DNA from: Lophium mytilinum | Lineage: Eukaryota | Direction of reading: 5' to 3' | Assembly (NCBI GenBank): GCA_010093605.1 | Contig: MU004195.1 | Location: 930,001 to 994,000, forward strand | Length of the DNA stretch: 64,000 nucleotides | Shown: positions 8,068 to 62,700 of the stretch, one piece after another | Layout of the letters: each line of letters starts with the position of its first letter | How positions within the stretch are numbered: the stretch's first letter is position 1 | Notes under the pieces: generated by a model | Databases searched by the model: none | The model's input: the letters and a program-made list of their open reading frames with translations, nothing else | Told to the model about the DNA's origin: nothing | Program-made: the position numbers and the translations under genes

Positions 8068-11000
8068 CTAATCTGCCAAAGGGTCATTATCGGACCCACT
8101 GTCAGAAGATTCATCGTCGTGAATGCAGCATTCTCCGCATAACGGGTTTGTCGCATTGACCTTGATATCTCCCGCCCTGATCTTAAATTGTGCGATCCTG
8201 TTGAACAGTGTTCGAGCTGTCTGCCGTTTCTCGGGCTCTTCTTGAAGCATTCCGCTAATCCAGGTCTCCATAACCGCCAGAATATCTCGTGGCACGTCTT
8301 TAGCGATCTCCGATGATGCCAACTCGGTCAACCAGTCTGATATGGACGGTAGGTTTTCATAGAATCGATGGCTCTCCGTCCTAGATTTGAAGAACTGGCG
8401 CATTTCATGTACTGACCTAAGAAGAAATACACTCCACATCTCCAGGAAAACACATCCTAGAGACCATATGTCGGATGACGAATTCCGCTTCTCATAACGA
8501 GCGACTTCAGGCGCACAGTACACAAGGCTCTTGGCTGTGTCCTGCGTCGTGGTACTTCTAGTAAGACTTTCCCAGTCCAACGAAATGCCGAAGTCGGTGA
8601 GGAATACCTTTCCGCCTTTGACTAGGATATTTTCCGGCTTGATATCCCGATGCCGGATTTTGGAGTCGTGGAGATAGCTCAAGGCACCAGCGAGGCATCC
8701 GAAGAAGGTGGGGAAGGACCGAAGCCTCGACGGCTCGCTTTTTAAAAAATCGTAAAAAGCAGCGAGGTTGTATTCCGCCACAGGGGCTAGGATAATGCCG
8801 AAGTACTTGGAGTCAGTATAACTAGCGATCTGCAGGGCGTTAGTCACGGTGCCACGCATCCTTTGTTGATATAATGTACCAATTCCACGCAATGGCTGTG
8901 TCGGATTCGCTTCAAAATCTCCAGCTCGTTCTTGAAGCTTTTCAATTGGCTGTTGCTGAATTGACCACGGCCTCGGCGAAATCGTTTCCTTGCAAATTCG
9001 CGACCACTCAGTGAACTCACCACCTTGTCCACGTACCCATAACCGCCTTCGCCAAGCTTTTCTCTTTCGGTGAACGGGAAGACCTCATTCTTTCCGAAGT
9101 GCGCATGCCTCGCCAAACTCGAATTCTCCATGTCGACCGCTTTGGTGAGGACCATTTTCTGTGTCTCGAGGAATTGGTCACGAAGCGAAACACTGAGGCT
9201 GCGAGGGAGCAAGTTGCTGCCTAAGGGTAGCCAAACGTCGTTGATACCTTGGTCGATGAACGTGTCAAGATCTTGTAGCTGACCGATGCGGCGGAGTACG
9301 ATGTATATTCGAGGCGAGTGGCTCCAAGCATGCCTCCCGCTTTCTTTTAAGAGATGGGCAATGTGAAAACAGTCGGCATCAGAATAAGATACTTGAGAGT
9401 CAGTGAAATAGCTGCCAAGAGTTTTGCCCGGGTTACTGTTCGAGGAAGAGGCTGGTGATTCTAGGGCTGGTGGCGAAGAGTGTTTTTCGGGTGCTGCTAA
9501 TGATGAAGATGAGGACAAGCCTCTCCTGGTCTCGAGGTTTGGCCTTTCTTTGTGAGACCCAGCAATAAGCTCACTACAATTCTCGGTACGGTGAGTTCCC
9601 GTTTGAGGAAGCAAATCTGAGGAAACGCTAGATTGCCGATTTTGAGACCCTAAAAATGGGTTCTTGGAACGAACGATGTTTGGGAGTTGCTCGTCAGTCA
9701 TTTGTGGCGAGACGTGTTCGCTATTGGCGATTGTCTCCGAGCTGAAGGGCGTAGCGCGAGGGGTTGGGTGAACCCAGGTTTGGATACCCGTACTGGTTTG
9801 GACGTAGTAGTACTCTTGATACCTGTTCATAAAACAACGGTAAGCAAAAGTGAGCCTATTCTGGTGGGAGCGGCGAAGCCTCTATTCTGGTCCTCAATGA
9901 ACAAAAGTACGCCAGCGAAAACCATAATACTTTAAGAGCATTGTCGAGAGATCGATGAACTCACTCTTCAGACCAATGGGCAGTCCACCCTGAAGGCAAA
10001 CTTGGGAGCAACCTGGAGCCTTTTCGATGGGCAGTCCGCACTGGAGGTAAACTTGGGAAGTCCTTGCTCAAAAGCGCCGATCTGTACATGTTGGACCAAT
10101 CATCAGAGCTATCAAACTGATTCGGATGGGATTGATCAGAATCCTGTAGGCCCTTTGCAACCTGAACATCGCGAAAAGAGTTAATTTCGTTTTGCTGCAG
10201 CTCCTGACGGCGCCTCTCTTCCTCCTCTTGACTCAGCTTTATGGCTAACTGAAGTTCAACCTCCTCTGAAGTTACCCGACCCTCCTTGACTGCGTCTTCC
10301 AGAAGGGCCCCACCTTTAATCAGTGTCCCACCAAGGGTCCGAGGAGAAGGTAAAGGTTTAGAGTATTGAGCTCCACCGTATTTTCTGAGGTGCCGTTCCC
10401 GTGCACAGAGAAGTCGTTCGTCGTCCATGATAAACGCCGTGAGGTCCTTCGCGTAAACTCGTACTTTGTGAGGCTATTTATCATACCGCTGCCATGTGTT
10501 GTAGATGATTCCAATTACCATCATGCCCCACATCGCGGCCCTCATCGTCAATATACAGAAACTCTTGGGGAGCTTTTAAGATATGTATGTTTTTTCGAGC
10601 CCATGTCACGCATAGTGTCTTGTCCTCGCGCACGATGTAATCAAGCACTTTCAGAGATTTGAGGACATGACGCCAGTTTCTCCCCTTATCTTGAAGCCGA
10701 GCGTCAAGGGTGTCCATAACCTGATAGAATTCGATTGAACTGTATTCCAATAGTTAGAGGAGCTGGCGAGTCACTGAACAATTTGCAGTACATACTGATT
10801 ATGAGTGAACTGTGCTATTTCCGCCAGCTGAGTCTCGTCAGGAGTTCTCCATGGATCATTGCAAGTTGCTAACGCAGTAAGTTTATGCTCGAACGGATCC
10901 ATAGATTGAACTTGTGTAGTCTCATACCATCACGAACTTTGATTTCTACAGCTGAATAGCCCTTGGTCACGTTTTTAACGGACCTGAGCAGCTTGGACAT
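8068..11000 (-). CDS. Epsin-type ENTH + UIM + WW + Ser/Thr protein kinase fusion protein (6 predicted exons)
   Basis: ATG at 11000: MSKLLRSVKNVTKGYSAVEIKVRD|ATCNDPW...|...DKGRNWRHVLKSLKVLDY...|VRVYAKDLTAFIMDDERL (ENTH). EEVELQLAIKLSQEEEE (UIM). LPSGWTAHWSE|EYQEYYYVQTSTGIQTWVHP (WW, joined in frame across intron 9823-9964). Kinase motifs GEGGYGYV, ARK, HRDIKPEN, DFG, APE and DIWSLG, with intron 8830-8879. Confidence 0.8.
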
Positions 11001-11651
11001 CTTGAATCGTGGATGAAAAAGCAACGAACTCCGCTCAGAGATCAAAGCTGATTGTGTGACTAGCTCACAGATCCCGTGGCTTCCACCGCTGTGGGTCTGT
11101 TGTGCCCGGATGGCGCTATACTGCGGAATTTCGATTGCGAGCGCCCTCTTCGTCCCCGCAATCTCAGACGGAAGGGTAAGAAGACAGCTCAACACGAGGC
11201 CGGCTATATTGAGCTTGATCAATGTAGAGAGACGGACGGTGCCTCTTACTATTATCTAGGAGCTGGCATGTTGATGGAAAGTAGAGGCCCTCGAGAGGAC
11301 GGATGCGTTGAGCGTCACGATTCACCAGCCGCCAGCCTTGTCCAGTGAGGCTGAAGTGATTGCCAAGCGGGATTCCCGAACTGGACTAGCGTCAACCTGC
11401 GTCTTGCTGCAAGCTGAGTACCCCGTATAGTGTTTTTGCATTGCAATCTAGGACGGATTGGACTGAAAGCTGGGCTGACTCTACTCTGTACCGACATTCC
11501 TTGATGGGCTGTGTATGCTGTATCTTTGTGTAGTGACACATGCTTTCCGGCCCGTTTCCATCATCCTTCGCTCTTCTGCCCCGATCACATGCCCCCAACC
11601 CCGATCACGTTATGCTCCGCTGACTAACCCTCTTTTCCCTTCTCTTCTGAC

Positions 11652-11658
11652 TATAAAA
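11652..11658 (+). promoter_or_regulatory. Candidate TATA box upstream of the repeat-spacer array
   Basis: TATAAAA following a pyrimidine-rich tract, about 32 nt before the first repeat unit. Confidence 0.4.
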
Positions 11659-11689
11659 GCCCGATCCCCCTCAGGCCTCTAATTTCCTC

Positions 11690-12540
11690 ATGGGAGTTCG
11701 ACAGGAGTTGATTAAAAATCGCAACCGACATTGCATTATGGCTGGGAGGTGATCAACAACTGCAGCATCGTCTACTATGGGAGGTGGAGGTCCGTGTGGT
11801 GGATCAACAACAGCATGTCCCCTACGTAATGGGGTGCAGTGCTGGTGGTGCATCAAAAAGGGTATGCGCAGAATGTCATGGGTGGAGTGCTGGCGGATCA
11901 AGAACAGCTATCAGTAAGCTCTATGGCTGGGAGGTGATCAACAACCGCCAGCTGCGTATGATATGGGAGGAGGAGGTTGGTGTGATGGATCACGGAGTGC
12001 TGGTGGTAGATCAAAACGGTCCTGTGTCGAATGTTATGGGTGGAGTGCTGGTGGTAGATCAAAAGGCGCATGCATTGAAATGGAATGGGTGGAGTGCTGG
12101 CGGTGGATCAACCCCGACCGCGAAGAATGCGATGGGTGCAGTGCTAGTGGATCAAAATGAGATCATAGGAGACTTGATGGGTGGTGGGGATCAAATCCAC
12201 ACATCGTCCATCGCTATGGAGGGAGTCGTGGTGGGAATAAAACTTTGTAATCGGTCCCGCTCCATGGGTGGAGTGGTCGTCGTTGGGAATCAAACCCTAA
12301 AGCAGCATATGCTATATGGTTGGAGTAGTGGTCGCTGTGAATCAAATCTCCTGCGCCGAGGACGCCATGGGCGGAGGGGGGTAGGAGTGTTCAAAGATAT
12401 GGGAAGGACTTTCTATGGAGTGGAGGTGCAGGCTGGTGGAGGATCAACACCTCCGGGCAAAAATCCAGATGGGAGGAGGTTGGGAGTGGGTGTTCAACAG
12501 AGCAGCTTCAGGCCCGCGATGGAGCTGGGTGGAGTGGTGC
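11690..12540 (+). repeat. Repeat-spacer array: about 18 G-rich repeats (consensus ATGGGTGGAGTGCTGGTGGTGGATCAA) separated by unique 20-22 nt spacers
   Basis: Units start at 11690, 11738, 11777, 11829, 11878, 11923, 11963, 12036, 12085, 12132, 12177, 12216, 12264, 12316, 12367, 12415, 12469 and 12519. Repeat length varies from 18 to 52 nt, but the gap between ...TCAA and the next ATGG is always 20-22 nt. Confidence 0.9.
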
Positions 12541-12789
12541 GAGACTTCTGTGATTATGATGTGGAGCACCGCGTTTCAGTGTCGAACGACAACTTCGAGA
12601 AGAGAAGGGGTATGTATGACACAGTTTCGTTGGAAAGGATTAATATCAACCTTCCGAGTGCTCTCACCAAGTCCAACACTGTGAGAGATGATAAATACTA
12701 AGATCGCTTGATGATGGGTGCTTTCAGTCTTATACAAGATGATTACAACGAAAGGAACAGAATGATGAAGATCATTAACTCAGTGGTGT

Positions 12790-12965
12790 GCAGACCACCC
12801 TCCACACATGGAGGTTGTCGAGGTATATGTTGCTCCATGCGGAGATTGAACGGCGGGTTTTTCCACCACTCCGAGTCCACTCCGACACCATCATTCGAGA
12901 TCCCCCCCATATCTGATGGTGCCACATCATCGTCTTCTCCATTTCATTGATCACCTCCAAGCCAT
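12790..12965 (-). repeat. Degenerate inverted copy of the array repeats
   Basis: 12947-12965 TTGATCACCTCCAAGCCAT is the reverse complement of the 11738/11923 repeat ATGGCTGGGAGGTGATCAA with one mismatch. Further minus-strand ATGG...G-rich units occur near 12910, 12891, 12838 and 12809. Confidence 0.65.
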
Positions 12966-13005
12966 TCCCTCCTCCTATCGATCCAAGAGCGGAGGACGAC
13001 AGAAG

Positions 13006-13012
13006 TTTTATA
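13006..13012 (-). promoter_or_regulatory. Candidate TATA box pointing into the inverted repeat block
   Basis: TTTTATA on + (TATAAAA on -), about 40 nt before the minus-strand ATGGCTTGGAGGTGATCAA unit. It mirrors the left end. Confidence 0.35.
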
Positions 13013-13981
13013 CCGCATTCCCATCTTCAACACGTTACGGTCACCTGACCTACATCCATCAATAGCGGAATACCCCTCCGATAGCACCCGTGTACATCAT
13101 TTCTCGAGTGATCAGCTGGGATCTACACCACTGGGTTCTCATTAACAATAGATTTTATCACCACGTGCGATCTACTTGCCAGGACCACAGAGCCGCCAGG
13201 AGACCAGAGCTCCTCTCTTGATCGATGAGGAAGAGCTATGATAGATTCTAGCACTTCGACAAGAGAGAGGTATCGGCAGTTCGCAACTGGGTTGAGAGCG
13301 ATGATTTGCGAAAGATCATTGGAGTACTTAATCCCTGAGCCAGAAACACTGCCCACTAGAGCACGCGTGCGTATCAAATCGTTCCGTAAATACATACACA
13401 GGAGAAGCGACATGATATCGGGCTGCCTGGAGACGATGCAAGCTGGTGCGCCGCGCCGTTTGAGGGGGCGAGAAGGGGGTGTGATTCCATTGCTGGGAGG
13501 GTTTCAGTCTTGTACTTCGGGTCGCGCTGAGACTCCTCTATAATTCTTGTCGATTGTAGTTTGAGGGCTGCTGGATCTTCGCATATGCCTGTTGCATATA
13601 ATTAGTTTGGTTCGTCATATCCGAAACAGTGATAGAAAGAGATGGTGCCATGCAAGTTCAAAGGGCCCATAAGGTGGGTGGGACCTGAGGGCCTATATGT
13701 ATATGTCCGCAAGGGGGATAGATTGGCATAAGGAAATGATGAACGCCACTAACAGGCTATTGCAAGCGATAATTGACAGATACGTTTTCGGGCTATACCC
13801 TTGCATGGGAGTATGTTCTACAGCGAACAGAATTTGAGAATGTAAGAACAGTCTGACTATATGCAACTTACAACCTACAGCGCCTTCCATATTTCAATTT
13901 GATCATTCACACACTACCTGCCGTCACATCTGGAAATCCATCCTACTCACCAGCCATACTAAGACCTCCTTCTAGGAAACC

Positions 13982-54255: not shown

Positions 54256-56540
54256 TGTTAGATAGCAAACAGGATCCTTCTATATTAGAAAGATCACCGC
54301 AGTAGATAGAAAGTATTAATCCTAAGATATTACTTCTTACTTTCTATAGGTTTAAGCCCTCTTCTATAAGCTGCGCTTACTCCAGCTATATACGTTGGCC
54401 CCACTCGGCCACATTATACGGCTGCGCTTATTCTAGCTACCTACATTAGCTGTGCTTATTCTAGCTACCTATAATTAGCTGCGCTTATTCCAGCCCACGG
54501 TCTAACATTAGCTAATAAGTTAGCACTCCTCTTTAATAGATTTCTCTTCCAGCACTATTATTAGGCTTCCGCCTAATTTTAAAAAGCTCTCCGGTCTAGA
54601 AAACTTTATTACATGGCGCAAGGCCTTTTAGGAAATTGCTTTACTCTATAGTGTCTCTTCTATTATTAATAGCTCTAAGCTAGTTATAAAGAAACCTAAT
54701 ATTAATAATTACTTTACCCGTATCTCTTAATAGAATAAAAATGCTTTTAATAGCCCTCTTTATATATAGATTACTACTATAAAGTATAATATAGAACTTT
54801 AGAAATAGAAAGAGAATAATAAGCGCGTGCGTTTTATATTAATACTAATTTAGGCTATAGTTAAACCCTATATCTATAATAAAGTTTCTAAAGCTTCTAG
54901 ATAAGTACTCTCTATACTTGCCGGCCTTATTAAGAGTAATAATAAGCCTACTCTTACTTAATAGCTAGATGCTGTAAGACATTAAATTAAATTAATTTAG
55001 TTTTAGAATTTTATATCTATTTATAAATATATTCTATAATATATAGAACTATAATAGAATATTAAAGATACTAGGGGTATCTATCTATTAAGTTAAGTAG
55101 TTCTTAATATACTATATAGTCTCCCTACTTACTTTAACTCCTTTATTAACCTTTAGATATTTAATAATAAAAACGCTACTATTAATAGTGCTAGATATAG
55201 AGCGTTCTATACTAAGCTTATCTAATATACTACTAATTATAAAGAACGCTAGAATTAGTAGAAATAGACTAAGAAACGTAATACTTATTTAAAAGGCAGC
55301 TCTAAAAAGAATAAGAATAATAAGAAGTCTAACTCCGGTAATAGTACTAAGCGGGACCGACCTAAATACTTCTACTATAAAAAGATTAGCTATAAAGAGA
55401 ATATTTATTAAAAAAAGATTATAGATAATTCTCTAGATAATAAACCTAATTCTAACTTATTAAAGCTAAACCTATCTAAAATAGACTCTACTAAGGTAGA
55501 TACTAAATTAGAAAAGAAATCTAACCTTATAGGTATAGTAAACCTAGCTATTTACTAAAATAATAAATATAATAATTTACCTTCCCGTTATATAGCTGCG
55601 GTTGCGGCTAAATTTAATATTAATTAATTCCGTTAAAATCTCTAAGATGCCTATCTATTAACTAGTATATTCTCTCTCTTTATACTTAGCTTTCTTACTA
55701 ATTAACTATAGACTTATTTAATTATCTATTAGAATTATAAAGCGTATAGTGTAGATAATATATATAAGGGTTTAGATATAAAAGGTACTTATAATTTCTA
55801 TAGATTAAATAGATAAAAAATCTCTCTTCTACTTATATTACTTTCTAGAACTATTTAGAAGAATATATAGCTAGGCAACTCTAGTATATTAATATATATT
55901 ATAAATAACTAATTATTCTTTTCTTTCTTTATATTTATAAGTATAAAGATTAGTACCTATAAAGAATAAACTTAACTCTTAATTACTAGTAGAGGTACCG
56001 CTTTTATTACTATCTATAATAAATTAGGAAAGTTAACTAAGCTCTAGCTCTCTAATATTATATTTACACTAAATAGCTAATATAATTTTATTTCTCTTCT
56101 AGATCTTACTACTAAGGCTAATATTAGCTTTTAGAGTACTAAAACTAGTATAACTCTTTTTAATGCTACTTATAAACTATTTATATATACTCTACTCTAA
56201 CGCGGATTATATTAATTCTATATTATCTAAGTTACTATACCTTATTTCCCTATTATAGCTACTATTATTAACTAGTTAAATTCTATATAGAACTTTTATA
56301 GATAACTTAGTTATATTAGCTTTAAAGCTATATAAAAACTTCTTTTATTAAGTTAAGGTTTCTCTTTTACTAATAAGTAGATTAAAGATAAGGTTAAAGA
56401 AATCTATTCTATCTATATAACTACTCGCGCTCTTAATAAAATTCTACGCGATTCTATAAGGCGCTATTTTTAAAAGCTTAGTAATCTTCTTTTTATTAAT
56501 ACCTAGAAACTATATTCTATTCTAGAACTTAAGAGAGAAT
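54256..56540 (+). mobile_element. RIP-degenerated Ty1/Copia LTR retrotransposon (5' LTR, gag, protease, start of integrase), truncated by the Gypsy insertion
   Basis: Starts TGTTAGA at 54256, with an inverted match TCTAACA at 54501-54507 and a PBS-like GGTTTAAGCCC near 54349, so the LTR end is ambiguous. After reversing C>T/G>A changes: zinc knuckle CFYCKKIGHKENIC (about 55367-55410), protease WLGDSG (about 55868), LHRRLGH (about 56293) and CxxC (about 56405). This is the Copia domain order. Confidence 0.75.
54370..54496 (+). repeat. About four copies of GCTGCGCTTATTCCAGC within the Copia 5' region
   Basis: Copies near 54370, 54421, 54449 and 54478 that differ by C>T changes. Confidence 0.75.
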
Positions 56541-56760
56541 TATTATAGTATAATAGTAGATTATAAGAAAAGACCTAATATTAGTATATATAGATAAAGT
56601 AGCTATAAGAGAGAAAGAAGGGCGCGGAGCGCCGGCTAAGAGGTAGGTAAGGCTGGCGCTAAGCCTAGTTATATAATAGTAATTATATACTAGAGAGTAT
56701 ATAACGCCGTTATATATATTAGAAATATATTATAATAGAAGTTATATTATAGCTATAATA
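56541..56760 (-). mobile_element. 3' LTR (220 bp) of the Gypsy element
   Basis: Perfect terminal inverted repeats TATTATAG...CTATAATA (RIPed TG...CA ends). A minus-strand polypurine tract AGAGGGGGAGTAG lies immediately adjacent at 56761-56773. Confidence 0.8.
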
Positions 56761-59700
56761 CTACTCCCCCTCTAAAAGAAACTATATATAGAGCTTCTAT
56801 TAAACTTTAGCCTTTCTATTTTATACTTACTATGCGTAAGTACTACTTTCTAATTAGTTCTTTCTTAATTAGTCCTTTCTTAATTAGTTCTTTTTTAATT
56901 AGTCTTTCTATTAATTATATAGTCTTTCTATAATTCTCTATAACTCTTTAGTCTTTTATATAGTATTATAAACTATTAGTATTATAAACTATAGGTATTA
57001 TAACCTATAAGTACTATATAGGTGTAATATAAATTAGTATAGAAGTTTAAATTTATAAACCTTTATATTACCTATTACCTAGCAGTTTACTAGGTTAGCG
57101 TCTTCTAACTAGAGAAGTTAGTAATTACTTAGCTAGCTAGCGCTAGTTAGCTTTAGTAATATCTAGCTTATAGTCTACTTCTATAGTCTTAATATAATTA
57201 TAGCTAGTAGGGGTTTCTAGTACTTAGGTTTCTTAAAAGATTTATAAGGTCTAGCGGCGTTAGGGTATTAATAATAGTAGTCTATTATAATATCGCGGTA
57301 ATTAAATATGCTTTTATATAACTTCTACTTAGGTTTAGTATTTTAGTCTAGGTAACTAGTATATCTAATTTTATATTAAAGAAGTTCTTTAAGGCCTATA
57401 GCTAGATTAACTATTACTTTATTAATGCGTAAGTTAATAATATTATTAATATCCTATTACTTAAACCCTTCTTTATTAACTTTAACTAGGCCGGGCTTAT
57501 TATATATCTATTCTTTAAGTAGTTTATAAGTAACTCTATAAAGTAGCTATAGGTAGAAGATATTAAATAGTTTTTTTATAGTTTATAGTAAGGTAAGCTT
57601 ATAGGTACTATTATTAATAACGCGCGTAATCTTATAGGGTTCTAGTTACTTATAGTCTAAGGACTTATTTAGGCGCTAGGTCTTAATATTCTATATATTA
57701 AGTATAACTTTATCTTCTATTTTAAGCTTAGGCGCGGGTTTATATTTAAGATTTATATAGTAAGCTTAGCGAGCTTATACCTATATAAGTTTATTATAAA
57801 GAAATAGTTATAAATAGTTAATATATTTAGCAAGTATGTTAGCTTTCTCTTATAAGAACTTCTAGGGCCCTTTTAGTTTAACACTATTATTAGTAGGCTT
57901 AAGTCCTAAATATAGATTATAGCCTTTAGTTACTATAAATAGTAACACGCCTATTATTATCTTATTATAATTAGCTTTAAACTTAGCTATAGGTAGGAGG
58001 TCTATCTAATTATTCTATTTATAATTAATATAGGCTTATAAGTATTATTTTAAAGCTATATTTATAATTTTAGTCTAGCTATCTATTTCTAGGTAAAATA
58101 ATAAGGATAACTTAGGTAAGGTGCTAATATAGGTATAGAGGCATTTCTAGAAGTATAATATAAACTATACGCCTTAATTAGATATAATAGTATATAGATA
58201 GCCTTTCTTACGCTAGACCTATTTAATAAATACTTAGATAACTAGCTTAACTTCCGTAGAATTAAGCGGGATAAACTTTCTCTTCTTAGATAGTTAATTA
58301 ACTATAACTATAATATACTTATATTTCCTACCCTATTATTTATAAATAGGCAGCAGTCTAATAAAGTTAACTAAGATGTTATACTAGTAGTAATGCAGAA
58401 TTAGTAGTAGGTAAAGAAGGCCTTACTTACCTTCTCTAGAGTACTTTAAGTAGTAATAGGTTATATAAGCGCCTATATACTAATTAATATTAGAGGTTAT
58501 AAGAGGCTAGTAATAGTAGTTACTTAACCTAGCGTATATAGAGGTAGTTTCTATATAACTAGCTAGTTTAGGTTTATATATAGAATAGATAATTATAGTA
58601 TATAATTTTAGTATAGCTAGAATATAGAGCTTCTTATAAATATAGAGAAAATTATTAATAATATTATAATTACTAAGCTTAATTTATAGGTAATAGTTAT
58701 AATAGAATTAAGCTAGTAGTTATTACTTATTACGGCGCTTAGCGTATTTAACTACTTATATAATAGAATTAGCTTAAGAAGCTTTCTTAACTTAGTATAG
58801 AATTTAATTACTTATTAGAACTAGCTTTAATGCGTTATATAGCTTAGTATTAGAAGCTTATCTATTATTAGTAGAAGAATTCTTTATCTTATCTCTTACT
58901 ATAGAGGTAGTTCTAGAATTCTTTATCTTATCTAGAGGCTTTAGTTATAATCTTATTTATCGCGTGCATATAATAGTAAGCCGTAGCTTATTATTAGGTT
59001 AGTTAAACTTACTAAGGTTATATATTATAGAGGCTAGGTCTATAATAGTATATTCTAGGGCGTTATCTATAAAAATGTAGGCTAGTTTAATAGTATAGTG
59101 CATATTAGGCTTATAGTTAGTAGGCTTAAGTATAACTTATTCTTAATATTTATAACGGGCGTCGCCTTCTAATAGTTTATTACTAGAACGTCTAGTAAGA
59201 AGGTCTAGTTTATTATTAAGTTTACTAGGTTTATATATAATTTTAAAGTTAAATTTAGCTAAGAATTTAGCCTATTATACTTAATAGCGGTTAAGACGCT
59301 TTATTATTATAAATATCTAAAGGTTCTTATAGTTAGAGATTACATTAATAGGGCTACTATATTTCTAGCCTTAGCTAGTAAGTTCCGGGCGCTAGTCTTT
59401 AAACGCTAGAACTATAGCAAGAAGTTCTTTATTATAGATAGCGTAGTTAATTTATTATAGAGTTATCCTTTATAATATAAAAGTAATAGGTTATAAGATG
59501 CTATCTAGTTATATTTATAATAGTATAGCGGCGATAGTATAGTCTAAGAAGTTATATTCTATCTATATTTTATAATCTAGATTCTATAGAGCTAGCTAAG
59601 AAGCGTTTCTAAAGTATTCTTTAATGCGTATAAATGTATATACTTTATCTCTATTATCTTTCTAAAGGAATTTAAATAATTTCTTAGCGGATAATATAAG

Positions 59701-62700
59701 TATAGAGAGAGGTACTGTAAACTTAGAGTATCTAGTAATAAAGTAATAGTAGAAGTTATAGAAACCTAGAAAGGCTTAAATATTCTTAAGATTTCTTAAA
59801 GTAGGCTAATTAAGTACTATTTAAACTTTATAAGGGTCTATATAAACACCGTTAACTCCTATAATAACTTCTAAGTATTTAACTTCTTAAATAGTAAATT
59901 CTAACTTATAGATATTAAGAAAGAGTCCTATATCTTTTAATCTAGTAACTATAGAAATAATATACTTCTTATATTTATCTAGACTATTACTAAAGATAAG
60001 AATATTATCTATATAGGCTATATAGTAGCGGTCTAGATCTTTATATAGTGTATTATTAATATATACTTAAAATAAGCTTAAGGCGTTATATAAGCTAAAT
60101 AGAAGAACTATAAACTTAAATAGACCCTATTATATTAGAAAAGCTATTTTATACTTATCTTCTTTCTTAATATATAGGGCGTTAAATACGCTAATAATAT
60201 CTAGCTTAGTATAGTATTTAGCTTTAGCTAGTAGTATAAGCGTGTTCTTAATAAGAGGTAGTATATTATAGCTCTTAATTATAATATTATTTAGTTCTCT
60301 ATAGTCTATATAGATATAAAGACCGCCTCTAGGTTTCTTAATAATAAGTATTAGAGTAGTAAAGAAGAATAAGCTTAGTTAAATAAAGCCTTTAAAGTGT
60401 ATTTTATTAATAAAAGCTTTTATAATAGTAGCCTAGTCTCTAGAGAGGCTATAGACTTTCTATATAGATAGCTTACTACTAGGCTAAAGGTTAATTACGT
60501 AATCTATATCTTAGTAAGGGGGTAATATATTAGCTACTTAGGGGTTCTAGGTATTATAAAGATAGTAAAGCTAATTAAAAAGAAGTTATTTAATTTCTTT
60601 ATTAGTAATGGAAGGTCTATTTATCTTATTAAAGAACTTTCTATAGTTAGCTAGGTTAATTATAAATAGGTTAGATATAAACGCGGCTTATTTTTTAGCT
60701 AAGGTATTATTAAGCTTAGTAAGCCTATAAAGGGTAGAATTATTAGCTATAGTATAAATAGTCTTATTCTTATAGATATTAAGCTTTTTAAAGTCTTTAT
60801 TCTATAGTTAAATAATAGTATTTTCTTTACCTTTATAGGTAAGCTTCTAATATTTAGTAAGAAAGTTATTAGCTTTATTTAGGTTAAAGCTAAGTTTATA
60901 ATAATAGTTAATAATTTTATATAGGGCGCTATTATATAGCTTCTTTTCTTTATAGGTAATATCTTAGTTGCGGCTATTACTCTAGATCTATTAGTAGCTA
61001 TCTATATATAGATAGTTACTTATATAGTAGTTAGAGTTAAAATCTAATATATGCTCTCCCTATATAGAACGGGGCTTATAGCGCTTAAACTAGGGTATAC
61101 TAAGAATAATATTATAGCTCTAAAGGTTAGTAATATAGTACTATAGATATTTAATATAGGCTCTAAGTAATAGCGTAATTTAGGCTTTATATATAACTAT
61201 TAGCGTAGAGCGGCTATTAGTAAGCTATAGTAGTATTAGTTTAGTAATTATAATAGTTATAAGCTTATAGACCTTTATAAATATTTATAATATAAAGGTA
61301 AGGTATAAGTAACTAGTATTAGTTAGATATTTACTATTAATAGCGCTTATAGTAGTATAGATTTAATACTTAAAGTTAAGCTACTTACCTTATATAACTT
61401 TCTTAGAGAAATTAAGTGTATAAGTAGAGAGCCGGAGTTTATCTAGCTTAAAAGGTAGTTACTCTAGCTTATAAATATAGGTAACTAGTGTATTTAGATA
61501 AATCTCTACTAAACTTTAACCGTAACTATAGTTAGAGCCTAGGGAAAATCCTTACTATTAGATAAGTCTTAATTATTATAAGTAGCGTTATTATTACTAC
61601 TATTATAGTTAATAGTAGCTAGAGTATTACTAAGCTTAATATTAGATATAGAATTATCTATATAGTAGATTATAGAGAGCTTTAGATCTAGTTCTTTCTA
61701 GAAATAGGCAAGATGTTATTAGACTATCTCTTTAAAAGGAGGGGCGTTCTTTATATAAAAATAGTTGCGGTTTAATATATAATATTCTATCTTAAGGTAG
61801 TTATAGTAGATATCTTAAGTTTATTTACTTAATACTTTAGTTACTATAGAAGGGAGATAAATGCGGCGTATATTACTATTATAGTTATAGTAGTATAAGC
61901 TATTATCTATAATAGGGCGTAATAAATATATCTTTAGGTTATAGTTAAAGTCCTATTAAAAGCTATAATTAGACTTATTAGTAAATAGCTTATTAGTATA
62001 TTTTAAGCTATTACTATTATTCTAGAAGGGGCCGTTAGAATATTACTACTTGCGGGCGCGTTCGCGCTTACTAGTAAGATAGAAGACTGCGCAGTTAATA
62101 GTAGTAATAAGTTCTAGCTAGTTTATATAGTTATTAGCGGCTCTAAAGACCTAACTTCTAAGTTTAGAGATAATAAGATGCTTAAGCTATTCTTTCTATT
62201 TAATAAAGTTTATATCCTTATTAGAGTCTATAGATACTATTTTCTAGAACTAGAGAAGAAAGATAGTCTATTTTTTATTATATTTTATATATACCTGCTA
62301 GCTATAAAGCTTATTATTTATAGCTATAGCTTTATTATTAATTATAAAGTATAGATCTATTACTTTAAATATTTCTTTAATTATTTTAAAGTTATTACTT
62401 ATAGAGCGGTTCTATTAAGTATAGCTATATATAACGCTCTTAGTGTATCTAATATAGTATAATTTAATATACTTAAGCTTAGCTTACTTATTATAGAAGT
62501 CTTAAGGTTTATTCTAGAAGATAGTATAGGCGTAAGCTTTCTATAATTTATACTTAGATATATTATTACGTTCTTTAAACTTCTAAAGGTTGCGGAACTT
62601 AGTATAGAGCTAGTAGAGGCTAGTAGCAAGTTAGGCGTTTAGATTATATAAGAAGTCGGGTTAAGTAAAGTAATTATAGTTAGAAGAGTTATTATCGCCT

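Follow-up and report, generated by a model that had tools for sequence, protein, structure and literature searches.

Does a fungal array in which conserved cores alternate with variable segments of nearly constant length act at the level of nucleic acid, or is it a repeat that is read as protein? The question was raised by a tandem array of 17 diverged units in the dothideomycete fungus Lophium mytilinum (NCBI GenBank assembly GCA_010093605.1, contig MU004195.1), within positions 930,001 to 994,000 of the forward strand. This stretch of 64,000 nucleotides is referred to here as the window, and all positions are those of the window. An earlier reading made from the letters alone (the sequence-only reading) had likened the array to clustered regularly interspaced short palindromic repeats (CRISPR), and had proposed a precursor of guide RNAs, a set of bipartite protein-binding sites or, as its least favored option, a decayed 16-codon peptide-repeat gene. 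The analysis reported here favors, with a probability of roughly 0.6, an old and strongly diverged tandem repeat of a 48-bp (16-codon) unit that makes up most of a transcribed, lineage-restricted and weakly constrained repeat gene. The locus would then hold an orphan or young gene whose residues are very weakly constrained, and not a guide-RNA array.

Anatomy of the array

Each unit consists of ATGG, a G-rich core, an anchor similar to GATCAA and a variable segment, here called the spacer. Parsing of positions 11690 to 12540 found ATGG at the start of every unit (17/17), and an 18th ATGG at 12519 opens into a unique tail. Counted with ATGG and the anchor, the cores of the 17 units range from 18 to 52 nt and are a multiple of three in 8 cases. 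Six anchor variants were observed, namely GATCAA in 10 units, AATCAA and GTTCAA in 2 each, and CATCAA, GATTAA and AATAAA in 1 each. Ten spacers are 21 nt long, four are 22 nt and three are 20 nt (in order, 22, 20, 21, 21, 21, 21, 21, 22, 20, 21, 21, 22, 22, 21, 20, 21, 21), such that 7/17 are of frame-shifting length. Successive units are spaced at periods of 39 to 73 nt, of which 9/17 are multiples of three and the others are off by small slips, and the unit starts are spread over all three frames of the overlapping open reading frame (ORF). The GC skew over the array is +0.32 to +0.40. In these respects the sequence-only reading was accurate. Its 17 units, their coordinates and its list of spacer lengths match the parse exactly, the spacers that it quoted as examples are present, unit starts do use different frames, and the variable part is indeed steadier in length than the conserved part.

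Within the 64-kb window, 13 matches to the pattern ATCAA-N20-22-ATGG were counted, all of them on the plus strand and between 11752 and 12472. In 100 dinucleotide shuffles the same pattern had a mean of 1.45 occurrences and a maximum of 5, and none of the 100 reached 13. Since the count was unmatched in shuffles, the array structure is real and far above chance. Further arrays, for which the sequence-only reading had proposed a pattern scan, did not come to light: all 13 occurrences in the window are inside the array itself, and of 100 loci returned when metagenomes were scanned for three modules in a row, none was similar to the array (blastn E value up to 1e-3, tblastn E value up to 1e-2). 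The metagenome loci with many pattern matches were short-period satellites.

Tandem Repeats Finder reported a period of 48 nt with only 2.4 copies (11994-12111, 82% matches). With 2.4 of the 17 units detected, divergence places the greater part of the array beyond the reach of that program. When 14 units were aligned with MAFFT, the mean column identity was 53%, and majority bases persisted in part of the variable segment.

The anchor frame behaves as a coding frame

Because the typical spacer is 21 nt long, the next ATG lies in frame with the preceding GAT-CAA. Read in this anchor frame, the units give the peptides MGGVLVVDQ, MGGVLAVDQ, MGGVLADQ, MGAVLVDQ, MGGGDQ, MGGVVVVGNQ and MVGVVVAVNQ, each followed by seven variable residues, and the codons used for Val, Leu and Gly differ among them. 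In the anchor frame, the 15 spacers preceded by a TCAA anchor are free of stop codons, compared with 6 and 2 stops in the other two frames. Shuffled spacers contained 4.7 stops on average and were free of stops in 117 of 20,000 shuffles. Codon usage was scored as codon-frame log-odds trained on 5443 codons from the window's own large ORFs; for comparison, held-out ORFs gave a score per 18 nt of +0.92 when read in frame and -1.4 when read out of frame. By this measure the anchor frame of the spacers reached +5.6, and the other two frames gave -20.9 and -12.4.

A long frame stays open through the array

One plus-strand frame runs through nearly the whole array and on into the unique tail (Table 1). 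It is closed upstream by a TAA (11709-11711) which is the anchor of the first unit, GATTAA standing in place of GATCAA. At its first in-frame ATG, position -3 is A and position +4 is G. Within 11690-12540 this frame has 1 stop in 283 codons, while the other plus-strand frames have 14 and 6 and the minus-strand frames 8, 12 and 13. The codon log-odds of the long frame over the array is +15.9, against -51.1 and -29.4. When the order of 14 modules was permuted, some frame stayed open in 101/20,000 permutations, and base shuffles left none open (0/5000). The frame shifts cancel in groups, and the long frame is back in the anchor frame ahead of the tail, which itself scores as coding (+6.9 against -6.7 and -28.8).

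Since the anchor frame is free of stops and has the best codon score, and since the units are MGGVLVVDQ-like, a 16-codon peptide-repeat gene is the best fit to the array. The option ranked last by the sequence-only reading (MGGVLVVDQ followed by seven variable residues) is therefore the favored one, except that "decayed" may be too strong a word, since one frame is open through all the slips at a rate reached by so few permutations. The predicted product is a Gly/Val/Trp-rich repeat protein, probably disordered or rich in beta-strands. From its first ATG (window positions 11829-11861) the N-terminus reads MGCSAGGASKR and is not hydrophobic. We take this start, Met-Gly-Cys followed by small residues, to resemble signals for N-myristoylation plus palmitoylation; the likeness may be accidental, as Met-Gly opens every unit.

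The spacers are related to one another

No two spacers are identical, and to that extent they are unique, as had been claimed. They are also mutually related: the mean pairwise identity of 15 spacers is 5.93/21, against 5.32 +/- 0.18 in shuffles, and the observed value was not reached in any of 500 shuffles. The best pair shares 13/21 positions, a value reached by 17/500 shuffles. A repeat search further showed that a higher-order block, spanning some three units and the spacers in them, is followed by an ungapped copy of itself (Table 1), the identities with spacers included being 81% over 59 nt (family D1), 80% over 44 nt (D8) and 96% over 27 nt (D5). The second block lost one spacer and therefore has a 52-nt compound core at 11963. 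Because the spacers are mutually related, the array grew by duplication and divergence and not by the uptake of unrelated inserts. The sequence-only reading had itself held that spacers aligning as diverged copies of one unit would speak against a guide array, and the spacer identities and block copies show this in part.

A short-word search, of the kind that this reading had proposed for the spacers, found no match of a spacer elsewhere in the 64-kb window: of 26 blastn-short matches, 3 lay outside the array and 0 of these were in a spacer. Beyond the array, the 19-nt core ATGGCTGGGAGGTGATCAA recurs once in inverted orientation (Table 1), possibly by chance. This copy was considered as a hairpin-forming partner array and was rejected, as it is a single 19-nt match (blastn-short E value of 0.048) with unaligned flanks.

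The array is transcribed

Three sequencing runs cover the locus, and their contigs were compared with the window over 10800-13600. Two of them (X1 and X2) gave DNA contigs, and the third (X3) came from another sample. All three sets agreed with the window with 0 differences and 0 gaps, though X1 and X2 may be the window's own source. Since the contigs agree fully, the frame slips are real and not errors of assembly. The X3 contigs contain spliced joints at 10869-10927 and 13131-13179; in reverse complement, the ends of these segments read GT..AG and GC..AG, which identifies them as introns of genes on the minus strand. Mapping of a loose contig end to 13754 located a third joint. None of the listed runs is annotated as RNA, X3 being tagged "RNA?"; because it carries spliced joints of neighboring minus-strand genes, X3 is taken to be RNA.

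An X3 contig covers the whole array without a break or a difference, and the same contig carries the exon junction 10868/10928 of the neighboring gene with an ENTH domain. The array is thus transcribed, from one strand or the other: contigs such as those of X3 carry no information on the direction, limits or abundance of a transcript, and one that extends over two genes does not prove a single RNA. A second, deeper X3 contig begins at 12675; nothing is concluded from the gap at 12633-12674, which has no X3 cover.

Upstream of the array, a putative core promoter, TATAAAAG, stands 30 nt before the first ATGG and is preceded by a C/T-rich tract at approximately 11560-11650. Judged from their sequence, the two together suggest a plus-strand transcription start near 11685. 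Overlapping TATAAAAG, the segment at 11617-11660 comprises CTGACTAAC followed by a pyrimidine tract and AG, and resembles a plus-strand fungal branch point and 3' splice site. The X3 contig has no splice joint at this candidate site.

Table 1. Positions of the array, its open frame and associated features in the window
Feature	Position	Strand	Remarks
Tandem array	11690-12540	+	17 diverged units
Unit starts	11690, 11738, 11777, 11829, 11878, 11923, 11963, 12036, 12085, 12132, 12177, 12216, 12264, 12316, 12367, 12415, 12469		
Longest open frame through the array	11712-12701	+	329 codons, stop to stop; stop TAA at 12699-12701
Long frame from its first ATG	11829-12701	+	290 codons; start context GTAATGG; equals protein P0001
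Non-repeated C-terminal tail	12541-12698	+	about 53 codons; coding-like
Higher-order block 1	11737-11896	+	about three units with spacers; families D1, D5 and D8
Higher-order block 2	11922-12054	+	ungapped copy of block 1; 80-96% identity
Putative core promoter TATAAAAG	11653-11660	+	predicted from sequence
Unbroken RNA contig cover (X3)	10928-12632		no differences
Lone inverted copy of 19-nt core ATGGCTGGGAGGTGATCAA	12947-12965	-	18/19 bases; inside a neighboring minus-strand transcript

Proposed origin of the array

The ancestral unit would have specified Met-Gly-Gly-Val-Leu-Val-Val-Asp-Gln and, after it, seven residues under little constraint. ATGG would then stand for Met-Gly, GATCAA for Asp-Gln and the 21-nt spacer for a linker of seven codons. 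The array grew as single units and the three-unit block were duplicated, with unequal exchange or replication slippage as the probable process. The variable segment would have drifted nearly to saturation, retaining its length and its freedom from stops because it was read as codons. The G-rich core, which is composed of short GGN/GTN runs, would have absorbed the majority of insertions and deletions, and many of these are of lengths not divisible by three. Slippage placing such changes in the GGN/GTN runs would explain why core length varies and spacer length does not, though the better conservation of the spacer is only partly explained in this way. Compensated slips would have left the frame open into its unique tail. 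We infer that the long frame is translated, and that it is kept open by selection and not by luck.

Points against a coding repeat and alternative explanations

Several observations weigh against this proposal. A word-indexed search of 5.8 billion clustered proteins found no homologue of the 290-aa protein P0001 other than P0001 itself, and an exhaustive HMMER search of 1.84 billion representatives likewise returned only this protein. The long-frame protein had no Pfam match at E values up to 0.001 or up to 5, and AlphaFold2 run without an alignment gave no confident fold (mean predicted local distance difference test score [pLDDT] of 31, no residue above 50). The best feature score in the ESM Atlas was 0.79, which lies among the values of shuffled proteins, and the pLDDT of the Atlas model was 0.38. 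The lack of homologues weighs little, because the nearest sequenced relatives are distant and the frame is fast-evolving; a large neighboring ORF is 100% identical to a L. mytilinum protein, with next best matches of 69% and 65%. In the titles and opening lines of abstracts of the listed papers that name L. mytilinum, nothing was found on this locus.

Other points against it concern the frame itself. The long frame reads 8 of 15 anchors as Asp-, Asn- or Val-Gln and the other 7 in shifted frames, and the present protein is therefore not a clean repeat of one peptide; among the three plus-strand frames, none reads all units as the same peptide. In the 7 spacers that are read off the anchor frame, the long frame scores -0.2, against +0.9 for the anchor frame. 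When spacer codons were permuted with the module order kept, a frame was still open in 3578/20,000 cases, and part of the openness is therefore cheap. First, second and third codon positions each account for 7 of the 21 differences between the block copies, without any trace of purifying selection on residues. Two copies of the 19-nt core ATGGCTGGGAGGTGATCAA, which lie in different reading frames and next to different spacers, have the same sequence. ATGs at 11690, 11738, 11777 and 11815 would precede the first in-frame ATG if transcription began near 11685, and these four would hamper translation. The RNA contigs are also compatible with transcription of the minus strand.

These points sustain two rivals, constraint on the nucleic acid and plain decay. 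Foremost among the alternatives, and itself unlikely, is a functional non-coding repeat, in which a GAUCAA-N21-AUGG module would act at the level of RNA or DNA as some 17 protein-binding sites, for example in a long non-coding RNA or in an extended 5' leader belonging to the divergent ENTH gene, the open frame being a by-product of G-richness and a coding past. A spacer held at 20 to 22 nt in 17/17 units beside a core of 18 to 52 nt, of which only 8/17 are multiples of three, also fits such a module. So does the retention of ATGG and the anchors in units that the long frame reads off-frame, and the identical ATGGCTGGGAGGTGATCAA cores, the absence of codon-position bias and the upstream ATGs point the same way. 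One RNA contig does extend from the ENTH gene across the intergenic region and the whole array, but, as noted above, this does not show a single transcript. A purely non-coding module would not be expected to show an anchor frame so rarely free of stops by chance (117/20,000), coding-like codon scores or an open frame that survives so few permutations (101/20,000). In addition, RNA folding was no better than in shuffles on either strand (z of -0.96 on the plus strand and +0.81 on the minus strand), no Rfam family matched the array at an E value of up to 1, and no further copy of the module was found in the window. The variation in unit period (39 to 73 nt) leaves no helical phasing between units.

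The same lack of constraint could instead mark a dead gene or a neutral minisatellite, that is, a repeat-protein gene broken by slips, with background or read-through transcription and a 329-codon frame open by luck. At least 9/17 cores and 7/17 spacers are of frame-shifting length, the block copies show no constraint on residues, no homologue is known, and the Gln codon of the first unit is now the TAA that closes the frame upstream. Set against these, an open frame survives in only 101/20,000 permutations of module order, the slips cancel in groups such that the anchor frame is regained before the tail, the tail scores as coding, and the RNA cover is continuous. On balance we consider this explanation rather improbable.

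A further proposal is that the selected unit is the GAUCAA-N21-AUGG module itself, offering about 17 free windows of fixed length, each set between a pair of invariant motifs, on a transcribed G-rich RNA. The array would then be a new fungal RNA scaffold or a processed multi-unit RNA, or alternatively a library of seven-residue cassettes made through unusual translation or processing. We regard this as very unlikely; it is retained among the RNA-module explanations because spacer length is better kept than core length, ATGG is perfect in off-frame units and codon positions show no bias.

The guide-RNA idea fared worse. In it, the transcript would be processed into RNAs of about 22 nt, one per spacer, each with a 5' U on the minus strand. 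The spacers are of suitable length in 17/17 units, the region is transcribed, and the U that the sequence-only reading described as invariant is present before each spacer, but this U is a trivial outcome of ATG, being the complement of its A. The spacers are diverged copies of one another and not independent acquisitions, none matches elsewhere in the 64-kb window, and the cores are neither constant in length nor near-identical. A search for hairpins or long inverted repeats able to form double-stranded RNA found none, the sole inverted match being 19 nt, and neither the folding scores nor Rfam gave any signal. The coding signals would also be left unexplained. We therefore regard a small-RNA precursor as highly improbable, and neither it nor the array of bipartite binding sites found support. 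An equally improbable suggestion, a multi-core precursor of the ribosomally synthesized and post-translationally modified peptide (RiPP) type, from which hypervariable cassettes of seven residues between VVDQ and MGG flanks would be excised and matured, draws on the fixed-length variable cassettes, their conserved flanks and the stop-free cassette frame, but only 8/15 cassettes are in frame within the sole open frame, inspection by eye found no hydrophobic N-terminal signal and no dibasic (Lys-Arg) sites in fixed positions of the units, and the 44 window ORFs scanned with Pfam include no recognized tailoring-enzyme family.

Genomic context

The array lies among housekeeping genes. Upstream, both on the minus strand, are the ENTH-domain gene (PF01417, E value of 8e-20) and a protein kinase gene; downstream is a Na/H exchanger gene, and the window holds further housekeeping genes. 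The Pfam scan of 44 window ORFs found housekeeping families only (ENTH, kinase, Na/H exchanger, citrate synthase and others).

The deeper X3 contig, at 12675-13783, has a mean word depth of 471, compared with 73 for the contig that covers the array. It represents a spliced transcript of the minus strand that lies downstream of the ORF for the Na/H exchanger and has introns at 13589-13753 and 13131-13179 (GC..AG) and possibly more upstream. Two minus-strand ORFs of this transcript (126 and 83 aa, within 12775-13503) had no Pfam match. The transcript may be a long spliced 3' untranslated region, further exons of the exchanger gene, or a separate gene or non-coding RNA.

Two other observations were made in the window. 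A 52-nt X2 contig fuses 22 foreign letters to the window at 11699, where the X2 contigs break and the X1 and X3 contigs run straight across; these letters look like the end of a loxP site, which would fit an origin in a library-construction adaptor and not in the genome. The region 54400-62650 holds 14 of the window's 20 tandem-repeat rows, nearly all of them short A/T-rich units, and looks like an A/T-rich region crowded with repeats beside the gene-dense part.

Significance

The analysis removes a striking but misleading candidate for a eukaryotic CRISPR-like array, its 21-nt spacers each amounting to seven codons within a coding repeat that has diverged. Of modest value is what is left, a transcribed frame without known relatives, which would derive from an amplified 16-codon unit and which is open through many compensated slips. 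The locus may serve as a small case study of how repeat amplification makes and maintains young genes. Constraint at the RNA level, if true, would represent a new type of fungal RNA element; nothing found here points to one.

Comparison with known systems

The array shares with CRISPR arrays the alternation of a more conserved element with differing segments of near-constant length. It differs from them in its cores of 18 to 52 nt, its six anchor variants and a mean column identity of 53%, and thus lacks the constant, near-identical repeats of CRISPR arrays. In addition, its spacers are homologous to each other, its host is a eukaryote and it sits in an open frame. No cas-like or other processing or effector gene was found among the 44 window ORFs scanned with Pfam.

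Fungal multi-core RiPP precursors of the ustiloxin, phomopsin and victorin types likewise carry a short peptide module in tandem within one precursor frame. In those precursors the core is conserved and flanked by dibasic sites, a signal peptide comes first and tailoring genes lie alongside. None of these features was seen in the array or among the 44 window ORFs scanned.

A closer likeness is to young or de novo genes that arose when a short unit was amplified, of which the antifreeze glycoprotein genes of gadid fish are an example (PMC6410882 and PMC8622921). The shared features are a lineage-restricted frame, made almost wholly of an amplified unit and lying next to a promoter (here a putative one), and weak constraint on residues. 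The array differs in that each unit has its own ATG, and the likeness does not extend to an origin from non-coding DNA, a function or a selective setting.

Intragenic repeats occur in many fungal genes and have been the subject of classic work in yeast. Fungal intragenic (coding) minisatellites (PMC10269696 and PMC5502367), for example in genes for glycine-rich or cell-wall repeat proteins, share with the array a conserved motif beside a variable linker, a unit that is a multiple of three (here 48 bp), an open frame, transcription, and the duplication of both units and blocks. Compared with such minisatellites, the array is far more diverged, only 2.4 of its 17 units being detected by Tandem Repeats Finder, and it shows compensated slips rather than a clean in-frame repeat. 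It also has no signal peptide, no known domain and no homologues in the searches described above. Taken together, these comparisons indicate that the array is most likely an uncharacterized instance of an intragenic tandem repeat or of a young gene built from an amplified unit.

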